From NCBI RefSeq assembly GCF_905207245.1, contig NZ_CAJLKP010000027.1, positions 171-64,170 on the forward strand: DNA of 64,000 nt. Reading direction: 5' to 3'. This document shows, piece after piece, positions 1,680 through 23,860 of the stretch. The first letter of the stretch is position 1. Each line of letters starts with the position of its first letter. The notes beneath the pieces are model-generated. The model worked only from the letters and a program-made list of their open reading frames with translations. It was not told where the DNA came from and did not search any database. The translations under genes and the position numbers were made by a program. Source of the DNA: an uncultured Bacteroides sp. Its GTDB lineage: Bacteria; Bacteroidota; Bacteroidia; Bacteroidales; Bacteroidaceae.

Positions 1680-2285
1680 ATGGGTAGAGCGAAGATAAAA
1701 AAGAAAAGTACGTTCATCGATATGACGGCGATGAGTGATGTGACAGTACTGCTGCTGACCTTTTTCATGCTGACATCTACGTTCGTGAAGAAAGAGCCGG
1801 TGCAGGTCACCACTCCGGCCTCTGTTTCCGAAATTAAGATTCCGGAAACGAATATCCTGCAGATATTGGTCGATCCGAACGGAAAAGTGTTTATGAGTAT
1901 GGACAAACAGTCTGACCTGCGCGAGGTGCTGGAAGCCATGGGACAAGAGTATGGAGTGACATTCACTCCGGAGGAAACCAAGAAGTTCGGATTGGCATCT
2001 ACTTTCGGAGTACCGATGAAGAGTATGAAGAAGTACCTCGACTTGCCGCAGGACCAGCAGGATGCTGTGTTAAAGAATGAGGGGATACCTACTGACAGTA
2101 TCGACAATCAGTTTAAAGCATGGGTGCGCAATGCCCGTGCCACGAACAAAGATTTACGTATCGCCATCAAGGCGGATGCCAATACTCCTTATTCCGTAAT
2201 CAAGAATGTGATGAACTCACTTCAGGACCTCAGAGAGAATCGGTATAACCTGATTACTTCTCTGAAGACTACTTCTGAAGAGTAG
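1680..2285 (+). CDS. exbD: biopolymer transporter ExbD/TolR
   Basis: 201 aa. N-terminal IDMTAMSDVTVLLLTFFML single-TM motif is characteristic of ExbD. Follows exbB. Confidence 0.87.
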   Translation: MGRAKIKKKSTFIDMTAMSDVTVLLLTFFMLTSTFVKKEPVQVTTPASVSEIKIPETNILQILVDPNGKVFMSMDKQSDLREVLEAMGQEYGVTFTPEETKKFGLASTFGVPMKSMKKYLDLPQDQQDAVLKNEGIPTDSIDNQFKAWVRNARATNKDLRIAIKADANTPYSVIKNVMNSLQDLRENRYNLITSLKTTSEE

Positions 2286-16177: not shown

Positions 16178-17719
16178 TTAGAAAGAAATTCCCAGAGATA
16201 CTTCTATCCGGTCTGTCCCACCACATTTATCATATTCCTGATGCAGCCAGTTGGCTGAGAGGAATACGGCATACCGATCATTGAGTATATAGTCCCCGCG
16301 CAGTTTGAGGGCAACGGAGGCGTGGTCGTCACTGAGGTAATCGATGTTCGAGAGTAAAGTGCTGCCTACTGAACCTTTGCTGTCCAGTCCCGTCAGGGAA
16401 TAATCAGACTTCACATTGGAAGTATATCCACCGGCAACGCTTGCCGATAACAGCATTTTCGACACTTTCCAGAGGGATTGTGCTTCCAGTCCGCCGCTTG
16501 CAGAGGCTATTTCAACATAGCGTCCGTTTCCTTTATATTCGGGTTTCGTCTGGCAGTAGCCGGCGGTGGGGAGCAGAGTCCATCCCCAGCGGCGGTTCCC
16601 GTTGAGGCGTTGTCCTATCATACCTTTCAGTCCGGCTTTCAGTGTCGTATTTTTGAACTGGTCCACACTGCTGATTTGGGGATAAATGGCACCGGACGGT
16701 TCGCCGAAGATGTTTTCAACACCCGTACGCTGTTGCAATGCGGCAAGCAAGTGCACTCCATATTCCCATTCACGGTTGAGGTGTGTCCATGCAGTTTCTA
16801 ACGAAGCGTCTATGTTCTTTATTTCATTGATGGGAGTGTAATTGGTGCTGGACAACTCTTTGGTCAAATGAAAGTAGTCCGCCCGCAATGAAGCGGAAAA
16901 GCCATTATTGTCCCCTTCCTTGCTCACCGGAAGCAAATCGACGCTGCCGCCTATGCCCTCGCCTGTGTAGCGGGTGCTGGTCTGCGTTCCCGCAAAGCGA
17001 ACGTAATCCATGCCCAGCCCAAGCATTTGGTAGACGGATGTGGAACCTTTATCGGCAAGGAACGAGATTTCGCTCTTCTGATTGTACTTACGGGCATGCA
17101 CTGCAAGACCTAAGTTATATTTCCCGCTCAGGTTGCGTGAAAGTGCGAGGCTCGCCTGCAAATCGGAAATGATGTTACGCGGACGCGGGTCTTTGTCGCG
17201 GTAAGCAATCACCGCGCGATAACCCAGTTCGGCACCGGCAGTCCATTCGCCGAAGCGGTAGGCATACCCTCCGGAGAATTTATATTCCTCTTCTTTCATG
17301 AAGCCGCCGATGGAGTCGCCCACTACGTAAGGGTAGAGGAGAGAGTAGTCGGAATTCTCATTCCAAACCACATCTTCCCTGCGTCCGTTGCGGTAGGAGG
17401 CTTGCCCGAAAAGCCGGTTGCGCGGATTCAGTACGACGAAAGAGTTTACTTCTGCGCTGAAATCTTTTTTCCCGTTTCCTTCCTGTGCCAATGCAGCATC
17501 ACCACGTTGCTCGTACAGTCCCTTCACGCTGACGCTTGTCAGACTGAAAGGACGCTGTTCGAAACGGATGGCGGCATTCTGCCACACTTGGTTGCGGAAT
17601 ACAGCCATCCGACTGTATTCCGACAATAGTTTTTGTTCGACAGTAAGCGTATCTGCTGCGGCCAGTCGTAGGGGCGACAGGACTATTGCGGTCAATATGA
17701 TAAGGAAACGTTGTCTCAT
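16178..17719 (-). CDS. predicted outer-membrane beta-barrel protein of unknown function
   Basis: 513 aa with a signal peptide, alternating aromatic/polar strand pattern and a C-terminal ...SLGISF (terminal Phe). From memory it resembles the DUF6850 family. Confidence 0.55.
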   Translation of the reverse strand: MRQRFLIILTAIVLSPLRLAAADTLTVEQKLLSEYSRMAVFRNQVWQNAAIRFEQRPFSLTSVSVKGLYEQRGDAALAQEGNGKKDFSAEVNSFVVLNPRNRLFGQASYRNGRREDVVWNENSDYSLLYPYVVGDSIGGFMKEEEYKFSGGYAYRFGEWTAGAELGYRAVIAYRDKDPRPRNIISDLQASLALSRNLSGKYNLGLAVHARKYNQKSEISFLADKGSTSVYQMLGLGMDYVRFAGTQTSTRYTGEGIGGSVDLLPVSKEGDNNGFSASLRADYFHLTKELSSTNYTPINEIKNIDASLETAWTHLNREWEYGVHLLAALQQRTGVENIFGEPSGAIYPQISSVDQFKNTTLKAGLKGMIGQRLNGNRRWGWTLLPTAGYCQTKPEYKGNGRYVEIASASGGLEAQSLWKVSKMLLSASVAGGYTSNVKSDYSLTGLDSKGSVGSTLLSNIDYLSDDHASVALKLRGDYILNDRYAVFLSANWLHQEYDKCGGTDRIEVSLGISF

Positions 17720-17733
17720 GCTTAATCTTTTGA

Positions 17734-19047
17734 TTATTGGGCCGGTAAGAGGGTGGCACGTACCGAAGGCTCAAAGTCTACGCTTGAGTTATTGGTATCT
17801 TGCAATACTTTACGTCCGTCTTCGGTGGTGTAGGCTGTTCTGCGGACAACTGCCTTGCCGTAGTTTTCGGCAATCGTACTGTTCACACCTATATAGGCAT
17901 ATCCCATATCCAATGCCATGCTTGTCACGTTCCATACATATTTGTTCTTCGGACTCAGGTTGACAGCGTCTATAATCCAGCTATTGGGGAATTTGTATTC
18001 GGTGAATACCTTAGATTGGTTTCCGGTTGCCAGTGTATAAGTATAGTCGTAGGTATACTCTTCCAAGTATTGTTTGGAAGTCATTCCTGCCGGTAGCCGT
18101 CCGATAGCGTATGACCTGTTGCCTTGTTTAGCCAACACCCAAACGGTTTTGGTGTAATTGTACATCATGTCCAGATTGGGCACATCCGGATTGTCTATGT
18201 CCGGGTTGGAGGTGCTGGTAGACTGGGTGTACCATTCAAAGTCAGCCTTACTCAGGTCGGCCGAACCGGGGTTGGCTTCTTGATGGTTTATGGCATTATC
18301 ACAAATGGTGATGCTTTCTCCCGGCAACACCGGATAGTCTGTACCGCTTCCGGGAACCATGGCTATCACCTGCACGGTCATGGCTTCCTCCATAATGTTC
18401 GGGGTGTAATCGTTTTTGGTAACGGTCAGGAATTTAGATTCAAGCAATACCAGTCCGTCGGCATACAGCGTTTCGGTAGAGTTGTTGTGGATGCGGATAT
18501 ACTGGTCGCCGTTATACTGCTTGTTTGTTTCCGCATTCAGGGTTCCGGCGGCAAAAACTTCTGCAATCACGAAATCACCTTTCTCGTCCTTGTTCAGCAC
18601 ATAGACGGGCAGGTTCAGTGATATGGTTCCACCTTTTACTTCCACATTTTGCTTGGCACCTTGAACGTCAACATCAGCGGTTTTGGTTACTTCTACCGTT
18701 TCTTCTTTTCCGTCCTCATTGGTTATAATCTGGGTTTCCTTGTAACTATAGGATGCGGTACCTATAAAAGTTACGTTATACAGACCGTCGGTCAGCGTGG
18801 CCAATGTGCTTTGGACTGCCGCACGGGTCAGGGTAGAGGCATAATCAACTCTTGTCTCAAGTCCGGTGCTGATGTCGGTAAACGTGTATGTTCCCGTCTT
18901 GACGGTCAGGTCGTCTCCGATACTGTTGATGACATTTAATCCCATGTCTACCTGTGTAGTGGCAACGTCGTCGTCGCTACAAGCGGTCATTGCAAAGCCC
19001 CCTGCCAGCAGGAGTGCCCATGCGAAATACTTTACTCTTTTCATCAT
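17734..19047 (-). CDS. surface lipoprotein of unknown function (DUF4876-like, from memory)
   Basis: 437 aa. Lipobox GGFAMTAC followed by SDDD. Lies immediately downstream of the TonB-dependent receptor. Confidence 0.55.
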   Translation of the reverse strand: MMKRVKYFAWALLLAGGFAMTACSDDDVATTQVDMGLNVINSIGDDLTVKTGTYTFTDISTGLETRVDYASTLTRAAVQSTLATLTDGLYNVTFIGTASYSYKETQIITNEDGKEETVEVTKTADVDVQGAKQNVEVKGGTISLNLPVYVLNKDEKGDFVIAEVFAAGTLNAETNKQYNGDQYIRIHNNSTETLYADGLVLLESKFLTVTKNDYTPNIMEEAMTVQVIAMVPGSGTDYPVLPGESITICDNAINHQEANPGSADLSKADFEWYTQSTSTSNPDIDNPDVPNLDMMYNYTKTVWVLAKQGNRSYAIGRLPAGMTSKQYLEEYTYDYTYTLATGNQSKVFTEYKFPNSWIIDAVNLSPKNKYVWNVTSMALDMGYAYIGVNSTIAENYGKAVVRRTAYTTEDGRKVLQDTNNSSVDFEPSVRATLLPAQ

Positions 19048-19068
19048 AATCTATTGTTTTTATACTTG

Positions 19069-21801
19069 TTAAAATCTTAAGTTGGCTTCCATCCCGAAGT
19101 ATGGGTTATAAGTGCGCTTGACCTCTCTCGTACCACTGTGATATATGGGTGCTACGTTCAGCAAGCGGTTTACAAATAATGACAGTTGCATATACTTCCC
19201 GATTTCTTTGGTCGCTTTCAGATTGATGCCCATTTCAAAGGGAACCACTTTGCGGTTGAAGTAATCGTCGGCATATTTGTTTACTAAATGTTGCAACTGC
19301 ACGTCCGTGGCGTCAGCTTCTGTGAAGAGATGTACTTTTCCTCCTTTATCCACGTAACTCACCGGTGTTCCGTTGTTCCAAAGGCTTTGTGAGGCGGTGT
19401 ACCAAGTGCACTGTGCTGTCACAGAAAAAGCCATTCCTATTCTGTTCAGATAGGTGTCGGCAGTGACATTCGTATTGAATACTTCATTGGTGGAACCACT
19501 TTCCCAATCATACAGACCTACATATTGCAATTGTTCTCCGTTCAGTATGATGGATGACTCTTTATATTCGGGCATACTATTGCTATAAGTTGTTTTTAGC
19601 CAGGCGCCGGTGACGGTGAATCTGGTTTTCAGTTGCTTGATACGTTGGGACGAGAAAGTGAACTCCACACCCTGCTTGCGTACACGTGTACCGTTTCCGG
19701 CCATTTTGTAGGCGTTGATTAAAGTATCTTCTGCATAGGATAGACCTTCCAGTGTGGGCGGACCGGTCAGTTCGGAAGAGTTGATGGAAGAAGTATCGTA
19801 CTTCTTGTAAGCCAGTGTGCGGTAATAGGAAATATCGCGGAAAGCATTGTTCATGCGTTCCTGAAAATAGGTGACGGAGAATTGGTTTCCTTTATGTGCC
19901 ACATTCAGGCGCACTTCCCATTTCTGGTTGCGTGCAGGTTCCAGGTTATAATTCGTATTGTCCCATTTATAGGTCATCATGTTGATGCGGCGATAGTCGG
20001 CATTGTTATGGTAGTAGTTCAGTTGCACTACGTCCACATATCTGGCATCCGGATATAGCTGTGCGGTGGTCGGGAGCTTTGACAACCAACCGATGCCGGC
20101 GGATATGTCGATCAGCCAGTCCTCGTTGGCACCCAGTGCGGGGAGTTGCCACTTCAGGTTAAAGCGGGGATCGAGGTATATTTTGCCTTGAATAGCATAG
20201 TCGCCGGATAAGCCTAACAGAGAGTTGGCGCGTACACCTGCCGAGAGGAACAGTTCATGCTTGCCGAGGGGCAGCTTCATTTGCTCTTCTGCATAAACGG
20301 ATACGTCCTGCCGTGCCGGGATGTCATTATAACTCCGGGGGCGGGTGGTCGATGAGGTGTTCAACGGGCGGGTGGTGTCATATACCTGTCCGTCTCCGAA
20401 GTTCTTGCTCAGATTCCATTCCGCACCGACTTTCAGCGTGTGAGAGCTTTTCATCCAGTGAAAGGCGAAATCGCCGATTATTTTGGCATTTGCATAGAAA
20501 GGCTTGCCGTCCACCAATACATTGGCTACGTAGTTATAAGGAAGGTAAAGTCCGTCCGCCTCTCCCTGTTCCGTGCTGTTGGGGATACCGGTGGGGCGGT
20601 CCAGTGATACCGACTTCCGTTCTTTTATCTTGCTGAACTCTTGCGAAACGGATGCGTTGGCACGCAGCTGGCGCAAGAAAGAGTGCTCGGGGCGCTTCAA
20701 CACCCATTCGCCGCCCAGCGTCATTTTATCATAAGAGGACTTGTAAGAATCTTCCTTTACGGTAATATCTTTATCACGTTTCACATTGTCGAATGAACCG
20801 GTATAATCGGCGTTGATACGCCAGTCTATGTGTCCAATCTTTGCTTTGTAGTTAGTATTCAGACGGGCGGATGCGGTGATGCGTTTGTAGTTCTCACGGC
20901 TGTCGCGCGGATCTACTTTCGAATCCAGATAACTAAGATCCAGATTCAGTACATTGGTGCCGCTGATTGCCCAGCCTTTTCCGGCGGAGAACAGTTTGCT
21001 TACCTGGTCTGCTTTGAAACGTGCAGTCAGGGGAGAGGCGCTTGATTTCCGTTTGATGTTTACTAATCCTCCGGTCAGGTTTCCGTATTCTACAGAAGGT
21101 ATTCCCCGGATGATTTCCACACTTTCTATATTGTCTGTTGAAAGCGTACGCATATCTACACCTTTGGATACGGACTCTTTGTCACCTTGATTTGTTCCTT
21201 GCAGGTATTGCAAGTTGGCATCAGTGTTTACGGTCATGCCGTCCACCACAAATCCCACTCCTAAAGAGGCGATGGTTTCGCTGGTGCTTCCGGCTTCACG
21301 GATTTTTATCAGATTGGCACTGCCCATGTTCGGGTCAACGGACTTTCCGCCGGGAAGCAACTCCAGCAAGTCGGTGAAACTTGTCGGTTGCAGATGTTCC
21401 ATTGCCCTGCGGTCTATTCTTGACGCACTGGTCAGTCCTTTCGACTCCGAAGCGGTAATCACTACCTCATTCAGTGCTAGGGTCGATGAAGTGAGTTGGA
21501 AAGACAGGGTTGTATTTTTGGAGATAGAGAGAGTCTTTGTTAACTTGTCATATCCCAGATAAGATACGGTTATTGTATATGTTCCGGCTGATAATTTGGA
21601 GAAAGAATACTTTCCGTTCTGGTCGCTGAGAGCGCCATACCAAGTCTTATCCGCAGTCTGTAATTGAATGGTGGCAAAACTTAAAGGCTCTTTGGTCTGC
21701 GCATCTTGTATAGTTCCGGTGAGGGTGTAACCATGTTGGGCAGAGGCAGATAAGTGATTGATAAACAGAATTGTTATGATATAAAGAACTTTGCGAAACA
21801 T
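19069..21801 (-). CDS. TonB-dependent receptor with N-terminal carboxypeptidase-regulatory-like domain
   Basis: 910 aa. Contains a CarboxypepD_reg-like segment (YTLTGTIQDAQTKEPLSFATIQL...GKYSFSKLSAGTYTITVSYLGY), a plug region, and a C-terminal ...MEANLRF. No SusD-like partner is present. Confidence 0.9.
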   Translation of the reverse strand: MFRKVLYIITILFINHLSASAQHGYTLTGTIQDAQTKEPLSFATIQLQTADKTWYGALSDQNGKYSFSKLSAGTYTITVSYLGYDKLTKTLSISKNTTLSFQLTSSTLALNEVVITASESKGLTSASRIDRRAMEHLQPTSFTDLLELLPGGKSVDPNMGSANLIKIREAGSTSETIASLGVGFVVDGMTVNTDANLQYLQGTNQGDKESVSKGVDMRTLSTDNIESVEIIRGIPSVEYGNLTGGLVNIKRKSSASPLTARFKADQVSKLFSAGKGWAISGTNVLNLDLSYLDSKVDPRDSRENYKRITASARLNTNYKAKIGHIDWRINADYTGSFDNVKRDKDITVKEDSYKSSYDKMTLGGEWVLKRPEHSFLRQLRANASVSQEFSKIKERKSVSLDRPTGIPNSTEQGEADGLYLPYNYVANVLVDGKPFYANAKIIGDFAFHWMKSSHTLKVGAEWNLSKNFGDGQVYDTTRPLNTSSTTRPRSYNDIPARQDVSVYAEEQMKLPLGKHELFLSAGVRANSLLGLSGDYAIQGKIYLDPRFNLKWQLPALGANEDWLIDISAGIGWLSKLPTTAQLYPDARYVDVVQLNYYHNNADYRRINMMTYKWDNTNYNLEPARNQKWEVRLNVAHKGNQFSVTYFQERMNNAFRDISYYRTLAYKKYDTSSINSSELTGPPTLEGLSYAEDTLINAYKMAGNGTRVRKQGVEFTFSSQRIKQLKTRFTVTGAWLKTTYSNSMPEYKESSIILNGEQLQYVGLYDWESGSTNEVFNTNVTADTYLNRIGMAFSVTAQCTWYTASQSLWNNGTPVSYVDKGGKVHLFTEADATDVQLQHLVNKYADDYFNRKVVPFEMGINLKATKEIGKYMQLSLFVNRLLNVAPIYHSGTREVKRTYNPYFGMEANLRF

Positions 21802-21826: not shown

Positions 21827-21923
21827 TGTAGAATGGGAAACGTGGGAAATCGCTATATATAGGTAAATTGTGGGTAGAGTTGTGGATTTTGCTACTTATA
21901 AATAGGTATTGGTCAGAAACAAC

Positions 21924-21964
21924 AAAAGCCGTTCCCCAGAATAGACAAGTAGGGAGCGGCTTTT
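21924..21964 (-). terminator. intrinsic terminator/attenuator after the small ORF
   Basis: On the minus strand, AAAAGCCGCTCCC-loop-GGGAACGGCTTTT is followed by GTTGTTT. Confidence 0.55.
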
Positions 21965-21984: not shown

Positions 21985-22233
21985 TTATTTGGCAGGCTGT
22001 GCAGGTGTTTCTGCTGCAGGCGTTTCCGTTGCAGGAGCTTCTGTCTTGGGCTCTTCTGCTTTCGGTTCTTCTGCTTTGGGTTCTTCCTTGGCAGGCTCAG
22101 TTGCCTTAGGTTCATCAGTCTTTTCCGTTGTCGGTTGCTGAGTCTTCACGGGATCCTGAGCGTTTGCCACGAAAGAACCACCACAAACAAACATAAACAG
22201 GGCTGCTACTAATACTAACTTTTTCATAATCAT
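21985..22233 (-). CDS. small secreted Pro/Glu/Lys/Ala/Thr-repeat protein
   Basis: Start placed at MIMKKLVLVAALFMFVCGGSFVANA (signal peptide). The mature part is low complexity with EEPKA x3 and ETPA repeats. Sits about 90 nt downstream of a sigma-54 promoter match. Confidence 0.6.
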   Translation of the reverse strand: MIMKKLVLVAALFMFVCGGSFVANAQDPVKTQQPTTEKTDEPKATEPAKEEPKAEEPKAEEPKTEAPATETPAAETPAQPAK

Positions 22234-22325
22234 TTGCTTTTTAAGTGTTATACTATATATATTTCTAAGTTTAAAGTTTAGGTTTCCTCTTTTTTGGGGA
22301 AGCTTGTCGCTTACATATGAATAGT

Positions 22326-22341
22326 TGCAAAGGTTGTGCCA
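22326..22341 (-). promoter_or_regulatory. sigma-54 (-24/-12) promoter
   Basis: The minus strand reads TGGCACaacctTTGCA. This is an exact match to TGGCAC-N5-TTGCW with correct GG-GC spacing. The adjacent upstream gene encodes a sigma-54 activator. Confidence 0.72.
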
Positions 22342-22398
22342 AGAGGAACTGATGATAGGCAAGTGGTTGATTATTAGTGAAGTTGGTGAGTGGGGAAA

Positions 22399-22458
22399 GT
22401 GTGGCACAGTGTGGAATTGTGTGGAAAGTGTAGAAACAAGTGTGGAAAAATTCCACAC
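22399..22458. promoter_or_regulatory. candidate enhancer (UAS): GTGTGGAA repeat array with a perfect dyad
   Basis: GTGTGGCA 22399, GTGTGGAA 22409, 22419 and 22440, GTGTAGAA 22428. The dyad GTGTGGAAAAATTCCACAC spans 22440-22458. A further copy lies at 22498-22505. The array is 60-130 bp upstream of the sigma-54 promoter. Confidence 0.45.
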
Positions 22459-22504
22459 TGTGGTGGTCTGCACCATACTAAAGCCGTAGCCAAAGCGTGT
22501 GGAA

Positions 22505-23860
22505 TTATAAGTTTATGTCGTACAAACTTAATTTATTGTACAACGTCTTCCGGTCAATACCCAGCAACTGTGCTGCCCGGCTTTTGTTGTTTCCCGTTTG
22601 TCGCAATGCCTCGATAATTTTTTGTTTTTCTGTTTCCTCATTGCGCAGGGGTAAACCTATGTGGGTATGGATAGGCTCTTGAAGTTCGGTCAGTTCGTTC
22701 GGGGTGATGAACTTGCCTTGTGCCAGCAGGGTAGCACGGCGCACAATATTCTTCATCTGCCGGAGGTTACCCGGCCAGTGATATTCTGACAGTGCTTTGG
22801 ATGCCGCGTCGTCGAAACCAATCAATTGTTTATCCAGCTCGCGGTTGGCTTGGTCGAGGAAGAAGTTTGCAAAGAGAAGAATATCTTCCCGGCGGTCCTT
22901 CAGTTCGGGCATGCGCAGGGTGAATTCGTTGATTCGGTGGAACAAATCCTGGCGGAAGGTTCCTTTTTCGATAGCCTGCTCCAGATCTTCATTGGTGGCC
23001 GAAACTAAACGTATGTCTACGGTGATTTCCTTATTGGAACCTACCGGACGAATCTTCCGTTCCTGCAAGGCTCGCAATAGTTGTATTTGTACTTCATAAC
23101 TGAGATTGCCTATTTCATCCAGAAAGATAGTCCCGCCGTTGGCAGCAACGAAAGCGCCTGTCTTGTCCGTCAGTGCTCCGGTGAATGAACCTTTTATGTG
23201 TCCGAAGAATTCAGAAGCGGCAAGTTCTTTAGGGATAGAGCCGCAATCGATGGCAACAAAGGGTTGCCCGGCACGTTTGCTGAGTTGGTGGATGCGATGG
23301 GCTACGTATTCTTTTCCCGTTCCGCTGGCACCGTTGATGAGTACCGACATGGTGGTGGGAGCAACCAGCCTTACATAATTATATAATTGTTTGGCAGCGT
23401 CGCTTTCTCCTTCCAGATAATCAGAAGAACCGCTTCCTGAGGCTTGTGAGTGGGTGTTGTCCCCTTTATCGGAACGGACGGTCTGTTTGGGTGAAGCAGA
23501 TGGTTGCTTTATCGCTTCGCCTATTTTCTTCAAAAGTTCTTCCGGATTTACCGGTTTGGCAACGTAATCGCTGGCACCTAATTTCATGGCTTGCACGGCC
23601 GACTGGATGTCGGCATAGCTCGTCATCATGATGAGTGGGATGGACATACCCTGAGTTCCTAACCACTTCAACAAATCGATGCCGTCCTTGTCGGGCAGAC
23701 GCAGGTCGGACAAAATCAAGTCGGCACCCTCCGTTTCCAGATGCTTCTGGGCGCGGGCGATACTGCTGACGGAAGTTACCTGGAAGCCTTTTTTGCCTAA
23801 CCAGGTTTTTAGCATCATACCGTAAGTAATGTCGTCTTCAACGATGAGTATAGATTTCAT
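22505..23860 (-). CDS. sigma-54-dependent response regulator (NtrC family: REC + AAA+ + Fis-HTH)
   Basis: REC domain (ILIVEDD...DLILSDLRLPD). AAA+ Walker A GASGTGKE, GAFTGA-type loop GSFTGA, ASEFFGH. C-terminal HTH NKSRAAQLLGIDRKTLYNKL. Confidence 0.92.
   Translation of the reverse strand: MKSILIVEDDITYGMMLKTWLGKKGFQVTSVSSIARAQKHLETEGADLILSDLRLPDKDGIDLLKWLGTQGMSIPLIMMTSYADIQSAVQAMKLGASDYVAKPVNPEELLKKIGEAIKQPSASPKQTVRSDKGDNTHSQASGSGSSDYLEGESDAAKQLYNYVRLVAPTTMSVLINGASGTGKEYVAHRIHQLSKRAGQPFVAIDCGSIPKELAASEFFGHIKGSFTGALTDKTGAFVAANGGTIFLDEIGNLSYEVQIQLLRALQERKIRPVGSNKEITVDIRLVSATNEDLEQAIEKGTFRQDLFHRINEFTLRMPELKDRREDILLFANFFLDQANRELDKQLIGFDDAASKALSEYHWPGNLRQMKNIVRRATLLAQGKFITPNELTELQEPIHTHIGLPLRNEETEKQKIIEALRQTGNNKSRAAQLLGIDRKTLYNKLSLYDINL

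Follow-up and report, generated by a model that had tools for sequence, protein, structure and literature searches.

Which transcript does a sigma-54 promoter serve when it stands directly behind the gene of an NtrC-type activator, and through which sites would that activator reach it? The question is raised by a locus in an uncultured Bacteroides sp. (contig NZ_CAJLKP010000027.1 of assembly GCF_905207245.1), of which we analysed a stretch of 64 000 nt, positions 171 to 64 170 of the forward strand, hereafter the window. On the minus strand of this stretch the gene of an orphan response regulator is followed by an array of TTCCACAC-like octamers, a -24/-12 promoter and a small open reading frame (ORF). 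The original prediction, made from the letters of the sequence, had seen in this order the classical enhancer-dependent layout. We find it very likely that regulator, upstream activating sequence (UAS) and sigma-54 promoter make up a self-contained enhancer-dependent unit driving a small transcript, likely a dual-function RNA, of the type of BTnc212, a small RNA (sRNA) candidate of Bacteroides thetaiotaomicron. In gut Bacteroides there has been little experimental work on sigma-54 regulation; here the promoter, the enhancer and the activator are found side by side.

Promoter, octamer array and activator

The sequence TGGCACAACCTTTGCA, read on the minus strand from 22341 to 22326, is the sole zero-mismatch match to TGGCAC-N5-TTGCW in the 64-kb window, so that the exact match claimed in the original prediction was both confirmed and found to be unique. 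Its GG and GC doublets, by which sigma-54 promoters are judged, stand one helical turn apart at exact spacing. In a pattern check upstream of the small gene (22225-22510) no housekeeping -7 box of the form TAnnTTTG was found; the reading of CCTTTGCA as such a box was rejected, as TAnnTTTG is absent both in the window and in the orthologues. A second sigma-54-like match, TGGCACGGGCATTGCG (2127-2142, minus strand), lies inside an ORF (1680-2285), has no octamers upstream and is probably due to chance. Coordinates of all features of the locus are collected in Table 1.

Table 1. Features of the regulator, array, promoter and small-transcript locus (window coordinates)
Feature	Position	Strand	Basis or remark
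Orphan NtrC-type enhancer-binding response regulator, 451 aa	22505..23860	-	Pfam and motif inspection
Extra exact TTCCACAC copy by the regulator stop codon	22497..22504	-	Outside the conserved array
UAS dyad GTGTGGAA-N3-TTCCACAC, distal inverted half-site pair	22440..22458	.	Exact, 19 bp
Five direct TTCCACAC-type half-sites (TTCTACAC, TTCCACAC, TTCCACAC, TGCCACAC, TTCCCCAC)	22390..22435	-	Spacing 9-12 bp
Match AATCAACCACTTG to the integration host factor (IHF) consensus WATCAANNNNTTR	22360..22372	-	Between UAS and -24 element
Sigma-54 -24/-12 promoter TGGCACaacctTTGCA	22326..22341	-	Exact TGGCAC-N5-TTGCW match
Predicted transcription start, A 22316 or G 22314	22314..22316	-	Inferred from canonical spacing
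5' leader	22234..22313	-	5' hairpin 22298-22314; CTAAAC repeats 22265-22282
AAAGCAAATGA box running into the ORF start	22230-22240	-	Listing inspection
Small ORF, 82 aa, signal peptide and Pro/Glu/Lys-rich tail	21985..22233	-	Shared start ATG 22227
RNA core GTTAGTATTAGTAGCAGCCCTGTTTATGTTTGTTTGTGG, 39 nt, overlapping signal-peptide codons	22181..22219	-	Conservation
3' box AATAATAGTAAGCACGCTAAC with triple stop codons	21969..21989	-	Kept in coding and ORF-less loci
Intrinsic terminator with loop GTCTATTC (21939-21946)	21917..21964	-	-22.3 kcal/mol, z-score -6.0

A sigma-54 promoter cannot fire without an enhancer-binding activator. The neighbouring gene, earlier assigned to the NtrC family, encodes a complete one, with a receiver (REC) domain, a sigma-54 AAA+ domain and a helix-turn-helix domain (Pfam Response_reg, PF00072; Sigma54_activat, PF00158, 8e-66; AAA_lid_14; HTH_8, PF02954). 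By inspection of the translation we recognized the Walker A motif GASGTGKE, the Walker B motif FLDEIG and the sigma-54 contact loop GSFTGA, in which Ser replaces the Ala of GAFTGA-type loops and F and T are retained. The receiver pocket, too, appears intact by inspection, with the acidic EDD, the Asp in LILSDLRLPD and the Thr and Lys in MMTS and AKP. Among proteins of solved structure the best relatives of the regulator are Aquifex NtrC4 and NtrC1, ZraR and LuxO. No histidine kinase gene was found adjacent to the regulator gene, and neither rpoN nor a second activator gene was found in the window. Upstream of the regulator gene a gene for a cyclophilin-type peptidyl-prolyl isomerase diverges from it.

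The plus strand has octamers with at most one mismatch to GTGTGGAA at 22399, 22409, 22419, 22428 and 22440, the minus strand has one at 22451, and an additional one (GTGGGGAA) lies at 22390. The block of five described in the original prediction stood, with the copy at 22390 added to it, and the perfect 19-bp dyad proved exact. In all there are eight TTCCACAC-like sites within 115 bp, while 0.13 would be expected from the window-wide rate (Poisson P about 2e-12). The dyad is nested in a longer perfect inverted repeat, CACAGTGTGGAATT, with arms of 14 nt (22405-22418 / 22449-22462). One detail had to be given up: the copy said to overlap the regulator stop codon merely abuts it (TAA, 22505-22507), is found at -163 from the T of TGGCAC in the window only and is degenerate even in the closest relative. 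We would expect the regulator to bind the octamers between 22390 and 22458.

Promoter and array were followed through a comparison set of 81 sequences, i.e. the window and 80 fetched loci from Bacteroides, Phocaeicola, Mediterranea and Paraprevotella, found by a regulator scan of species-representative genomes (63-95% amino acid identity). The regulators nearest to that of the window are from B. oleiciplenus (locus L001, 95%) and B. intestinalis (91%). TGGCAY-N5-TTG with at least two octamers within 220 bp upstream was present in 63 of the 81 sequences, spanning three genera; nine further sequences have TGGCAY-N5-TTG with octamers that are more distant or degenerate. By our own estimate about 0.03 TGGCAY-N5-TTG motifs of this kind would be expected by chance per 4 kb. 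The base following TGGCAY is a purine (A or G) in every one of the 63 promoters and T is preferred before TTG (49/63), while the -12 position after TTG is taken by C in 24, A in 25, T in 9 and G in 5. The description 'near-consensus' is therefore apt for the window, where the match is exact, but less so for the family, in which a -12 TTGCA is lineage-restricted and TTTGA and TTTGG are equally common.

The geometry of the array is conserved as well. Counted from the T of TGGCAC, the arms of the orthologous dyad are typically found at -117 and -106, and the repeats that share one orientation at -94, -85, -75 and -65; some lineages have the entire array shifted about 10 nt farther upstream. Start-to-start spacing of half-sites is most commonly 9 or 10 bp, then 12 bp; there are three to six half-sites per locus, with the consensus wTTCCACAC(t), and a dyad with a 3-nt spacer was observed in 48 of the 63 promoters (at most one mismatch per arm). 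In several loci (L010, L016, L018, L019, L021, L032, L033, L038 and L058) regulator gene and module are 0.4-3.3 kb apart, with a sulfatase-like ORF in between in L016 and L018. In these displaced modules the array stays with the promoter, its geometry being kept in L010, L016, L018, L021, L032, L033 and L058, and no exact octamers were found within 400 bp after the regulator stop, save in L021, where they belong to the displaced module itself. That the array travels with the promoter, and that octamers are gone from the 3' end of the regulator gene, argues against the dyad being a mere terminator of that gene. Conservation of both promoter and octamers in orthologous loci had been proposed as a check of the original prediction; the -24 element and the octamers are conserved together, with their spacing fixed, in 63 of the 81 sequences, also when displaced, and the fixed enhancer distance of the array supports the classical layout of activator gene, UAS and -24/-12 promoter.

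Between array and promoter, exact matches to the IHF consensus were observed in 23 of the 63 promoters (0.3 expected in shuffles), at offsets of -32 to -28 from the T of TGGCAC and in 20 of the 23 at -31 or -30; many of the remaining promoters have one-mismatch versions in the same place. Bacteroides has an IHF-like host factor, BHFa, known from integration of CTnDOT, and the site at 22360-22372 may serve to bend the DNA.

The small transcript and its counterpart BTnc212

The core sequence of the small gene matches sORF_00320, a small ORF (sORF) inside BTnc212 (Ryan et al. 2020, PMC7366714, Supplementary Data). Judged by its sequence, the window transcript is the orthologue of BTnc212 of B. 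thetaiotaomicron VPI-5482, which extends over 451 nt of the minus strand of NC_004663.1 (4929741-4930192) with transcription start sites (TSSs) at 4930192 and 4930190 (Ryan et al. 2020, PMC7366714). The two loci have in common the core, an sORF with signal peptide, the UAS and a TGGCAC promoter; they differ in the mature peptide, which carries NDTV repeats in B. thetaiotaomicron and a Pro/Glu/Lys-rich tail in the window. BTnc212 was listed only as a candidate, without regulator, sigma factor or function, and its promoter class was given as '?', i.e. neither of the two motifs defined in that study (PMC7366714). It has entries in B. thetaiotaomicron expression tables, and in a literature search it was not named in the main text of any indexed paper.

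Metagenome contigs with an identical 270-nt sORF have the same octamer array and TGGCACACACTTTGA upstream. Counted from the T of TGGCAC in TGGCACACACTTTGA, the published TSS at 4930192 falls 28 nt downstream, on the first purine, and leaves a leader of 82 nt. A start mapping elsewhere had been named as a ground for refuting the original prediction; in the B. thetaiotaomicron orthologue the start determined by differential RNA-seq is found behind the -24/-12 element, at a promoter to which no housekeeping motif was assigned. The same data provide a second case: upstream of BT_1000 (TSS 1245246, minus strand of NC_004663.1) there is TTTTGGCACAGGATTTGAAGTATTCTTCTG (Ryan et al. 2020, supplementary file 3, PMC7366714); here the distance from the T of TGGCAC to the TSS is exactly 26 nt, and TTGA stands instead of TTGC at -12. 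This spacing indicates that the TTGA (TTTGA) variant of the -12 element is used in vivo in B. thetaiotaomicron; the BT_1000 promoter was not discussed as sigma-54-dependent in that paper (PMC7366714).

The B. thetaiotaomicron-type metagenome contigs also differ among themselves. Comparison of L095 with L082 and L097 revealed a deletion that removes the sigma-54 promoter from L095, with octamers and sORF retained. In L107 the regulator stop lies directly beside the array, and the other contigs with an identical sORF have different DNA there.

A cross-linking and immunoprecipitation sequencing (CLIP-seq) peak of the RNA-binding protein RbpB, peak 179, lies in BTnc212 at 4930033-4930108 (log2 fold change 4.79, adjusted P 3.9e-10; PMC11697453). 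It begins 2 nt after the ATG of the sORF and hence covers the core. RbpB prefers single-stranded regions of sRNAs (PMC11697453), and the core most likely serves this protein as a binding platform. Another RbpB-bound sRNA, BTnc213 (4930650-4930838, minus strand), lies about 0.5 kb upstream of the BTnc212 start and belongs to a six-member transposase-associated family.

What such a transcript is for can be argued in two ways. It could be a plain mRNA for a small secreted protein, with conservation at the 5' end reflecting constraints on signal peptide, codons or translation initiation, and with ORF-less loci being decaying pseudogenes. The ORF is indeed intact in the window and in about 20 loci, where it encodes 59-94 aa starting MKKLVLVAALFMFVCGGSF. 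The mature peptides vary, having either AQDPVK with acidic, Lys- or Pro-rich tails or NDTVxTD repeats; these features recur across lineages, Paraprevotella included, and indicate a real secreted protein in many of them. Some Phocaeicola and Paraprevotella loci, moreover, have different small secreted proteins behind the same promoter. No Pfam family matched the 82-aa protein, nothing beyond a sub-threshold PepSY_like was found by Pfam for the Phocaeicola small proteins, and the records retrieved for the small proteins by exact sequence were annotated only as 'hypothetical protein'. The start codon shared with other species is ATG 22227; the ATG at 22233 taken as the start in the original prediction is in frame and is a lineage-specific upstream start.

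Still, we consider the plain mRNA explanation unlikely, as several observations do not fit it. The core keeps 85-100% identity across most of the 37 matching loci, where the regulators have about 67-95% amino acid identity, and at least 11 loci keep it though the ORF is broken or its start codon missing. In 12 ORF-less loci CCTGTTTATGTTTGTTTGTG, predicted to be unpaired, is invariant save for a one-base gap in one of them, and in the hairpin 3' of the core six of the eight predicted pairs show compensatory double changes. Three of the ORF-less loci come from isolate genomes (B. clarus YIT 12056, B. gallinarum DSM 18171 and B. fluxus YIT 12057); thus the loss of the ORF is not an assembly error. 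The ORF-less loci retain the 3' box as well: its stretch AATAATAGTAAGCACACTAAC, which holds the stop codons, is conserved in coding and ORF-less classes alike. They also retain the terminator, the stem of which covaries (6 of 11 pairs with double changes) around a loop, GTCTATTC, identical in 34 of 34 loci of an alignment that includes close relatives from the B. thetaiotaomicron group and leaves out B. thetaiotaomicron itself. At identical amino acids the same codon is used in 81% of cases in the first 18 codons of 15 coding loci, compared with 47% in the receiver domain of the regulator. Finally, RbpB crosslinks at the core in B. thetaiotaomicron, and an ORF-less RNA occupies the same position in Phocaeicola.

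The pattern of conservation thus argues for RNA-level constraint on both core and terminator loop. A regulatory or dual-function role of the RNA appears probable for the family as a whole, with less assurance for the ORF-bearing copy in the window. The original prediction had taken the small gene as target of the promoter; it is the small transcript that is conserved in this place, and in several species it is non-coding.

In the Phocaeicola loci the octamers and a TGGCAC-N5-TTG(C/T) promoter are kept, and a different RNA of 130-240 nt without conserved ORF follows (L053, L055-L057, L059-L061, L063-L066, L070, L072, L073, L075, L076, L079 and L080). Its distance from the regulator stop is about 110-420 nt, and about 1.7 kb in L050. 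Two blocks of this RNA, ACCCAACCC and GAAGATGCCTATGTGTT, are invariant and the stem of its terminator covaries; the sole recurrent frame, a 6-codon mini-ORF within ATGAAGATGCCTATGTGTTAA, was taken as fortuitous. By inspection of listings, the motifs of the window leader recur in Bacteroides leaders and the CTAAAC repeats are present in the Phocaeicola RNA as well; the 5' hairpin of the leader is weak (-3 kcal/mol).

We note several further observations on the small transcript. In L031 the small gene or core is tandemly duplicated, with ORFs at about +217 and +531 relative to the regulator stop; L025 and L027 have a degenerate first copy of the core ahead of the intact one; in L006 a long inverted repeat of GTTGAAAGTTGAGAGTTGAAAGTTGAAAG units directly follows the conserved terminator, about 250-380 nt past the predicted start. 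Pairing of the 5' core with the 3' box was considered and rejected, being just a 6-bp GUUAGU/ACUAAC match without support from covariation. Identity with IroR, considered because the nearby receptor suggested a link to iron, was rejected as well: IroR is BTnc022 and has no ORF.

Competing explanations of array and target

One may ask whether the octamers are bound by a different factor, with the adjacent activator working elsewhere or from other sites. We hold this to be improbable. Regulator gene and array are adjacent across Bacteroides, Phocaeicola and Paraprevotella, the regulator gene is the only activator gene of the window, and the array is situated at the classical enhancer distance from the sigma-54 promoter. 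What speaks for another factor is that a direct-repeat array is unlike the usual paired dyads of NtrC-family sites.

Downstream of the 82-aa ORF the genes on the minus strand are arranged as follows: hairpin terminator, TonB-dependent receptor (with CarboxypepD_reg and Plug domains), DUF4876 protein and DUF6850 protein. The receptor gene, which the original prediction had counted among the possible targets, and its operon (16178-21801) are on the same strand and start only 183 bp past the small ORF, and read-through of the terminator is possible in principle; the real target could then be the operon, with the small gene as its leader. This is quite improbable: the strong terminator with its T tract lies in between, and the receptor has a -7-type box of its own, TAACTTTG, at 21826-21819, 18-25 nt before its ATG. 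Besides, only the window and L001 have the operon downstream of the module; in L078 the downstream receptor is an unrelated one (26% identity). In a long-ORF listing of 13 loci the next long ORF was on the opposite strand in seven of eight Bacteroides-group loci and in four of four Phocaeicola loci. The convergent gene encodes a protein of about 845 aa, followed by a 223-aa ORF, in the Bacteroides-group loci; in Phocaeicola the 223-aa ORF comes directly. Given the terminator, the receptor's own box and the lack of conservation of the operon, the conserved transcription unit is the small transcript alone. The operon looks like a lineage-specific insertion between the module and otherwise convergent genes, and we propose that the window transcript of about 400 nt ends at the terminator (21964-21917) and excludes the operon.

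Least credible of all is a reading in which the dyad serves the regulator gene solely as intrinsic terminator and the octamers have no part in activator binding, even though a terminator scan flags 22459-22439 (RNA fold of -12 kcal/mol, followed by UUGUUUCU) and the dyad stands just past the regulator stop in most loci, as its sequence and not just its pairing is conserved (48 of 63 match GTGTGGAA-N3-TTCCACAC, nearly equally far from the promoter), it is flanked by direct repeats of this octamer that are unpaired, and it moves with the promoter when displaced, leaving no octamers after the regulator stop. The dyad may have a secondary role as terminator in the window.

Proposed circuit and known systems

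For the enhancer-dependent unit we propose the following course of events. A kinase encoded elsewhere presumably phosphorylates the receiver Asp of the orphan regulator. The regulator would then bind the one inverted pair and the four or five direct TTCCACAC half-sites (22390-22458), phased at about one helical turn, assemble there an active AAA+ ring and loop to the sigma-54 holoenzyme at TGGCAC-N5-TTGCA (22341-22326), probably helped by a bend at the IHF-like site (22360-22372). ATP hydrolysis would open the promoter, and transcription would begin near 22316-22314. The resulting transcript of about 400 nt would encode the 82-aa secreted protein and probably also, or instead, act as a regulatory RNA. 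We infer from the sequences that the transcript would depend on rpoN, answer to an inducing signal and act at the RNA level.

Several points weigh against this picture. The -12 C, a hallmark of sigma-54, is kept in just 24 of the 63 orthologous promoters, and the B. thetaiotaomicron TSS lies 2 nt downstream of the canonical position (28 versus 26). The dyad, 46 nt past the regulator stop, can also form a modest hairpin resembling a terminator. The CLIP data are confined to B. thetaiotaomicron. Duplex folding of core and terminator loop against 71 start regions in the window did not reveal an RNA target, though the duplexes obtained were all long and gapped and so uninformative. The ORF of the window is intact and AQDPVK and NDTVxTD are conserved elsewhere, which is compatible with a purely protein-coding role here.

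More tentatively, and with somewhat more doubt than confidence, the circuit could be extended to the Bacteroidaceae at large. One orphan two-component regulator with sigma-54 would control a single fast-evolving riboregulator locus, the orthologous transcript being a secreted-protein mRNA, dual-function or purely non-coding depending on species; it would act via RbpB through its invariant U/G-rich core, and six or seven helically phased half-sites, in place of paired dyads, would serve as template for the ring of the activator.

In either form the locus is a complete, testable circuit, with a named activator, a half-site consensus (wTTCCACAC) of fixed geometry and a promoter that tolerates loss of the -12 C. 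It supplies a single abundant RbpB-bound transcript, BTnc212, whose promoter class stood open, and this orphan sRNA candidate gains a proposed regulator and a proposed sigma factor. Coding, dual and non-coding orthologues make a natural series on how an mRNA becomes an sRNA, and a reporter on the promoter could serve the hunt for kinase and signal.

Our literature search found no prior report that gives BTnc212 a sigma-54, activator or binding-motif assignment, and no experimentally defined sigma-54/activator/sRNA circuit in Bacteroidota. The one relevant Bacteroidota paper contains computational predictions of sigma-54 regulons and a cited statement on grpE and groES; sigma-54 was not mentioned in the B. 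thetaiotaomicron transcriptome atlas papers or in the Segatella paper. The riboregulator reading, if true, would make this the first defined circuit of sigma-54, enhancer-binding protein and sRNA in the phylum.

Outside the phylum the design is familiar. In Vibrio, LuxO, an NtrC-type regulator made up of REC, AAA+ and HTH domains, switches on the sigma-54 promoters from which the Qrr sRNAs are transcribed, and one of these sRNA genes adjoins the regulator gene. The circuit design is the same, and LuxO is among the best solved relatives of the window regulator; the RNAs are unrelated in sequence, the architecture of the binding sites differs, and in many species the window-type transcript doubles as an mRNA. 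Hfq is the partner of the Qrr RNAs. Bacteroides is not known to possess Hfq, and the RNA partner here is RbpB, a protein with an RNA recognition motif. In Enterobacteriaceae the GlrK-GlrR system and sigma-54 drive GlmY (and GlmZ) with several upstream sites and IHF sites, and the sRNA binds RapZ (PMC3045617). The likeness again includes an enhancer-binding response regulator, upstream sites, IHF and a sigma-54 promoter leading to an sRNA that acts largely by protein binding; however, GlrR sites are TGTC-N10-GACA dyads, the kinase gene is adjacent, and RNA and pathway are unrelated to those of the window. With Rfam 15, even at permissive settings, only tRNAs and chance matches were obtained and no family reached threshold in the window region, the B. 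thetaiotaomicron-type contigs or the Phocaeicola loci. Thus the circuit resembles Qrr and GlmY in design only and its RNA belongs to neither of these RNA families.

With NtrC at glnAp2 the locus shares activator sites 100-140 bp upstream of the -24/-12 element, and the proposed oligomerisation, looping and ATP-driven opening; it differs in that the window-type array consists of one dyad and three to five same-orientation half-sites at a pitch of 9-12 bp, not of two or more dyads, and in that the orthologous -12 elements are often without C. SgrS/SgrT, RNAIII/hld and SR1/SR1P likewise combine a small ORF with an RNA element on one transcript, the element being a candidate regulatory one here. 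For SgrS, related species can lose the ORF yet keep the RNA function. The constrained RNA element of the present family, unlike those, overlaps signal-peptide codons, and its regulatory activity is putative. The circuit itself is of the classical enhancer-dependent type and new for Bacteroides; what is unusual about it is a phased direct-repeat enhancer, a -12 element under relaxed sequence demands and a target that is coding in some species and non-coding in others.

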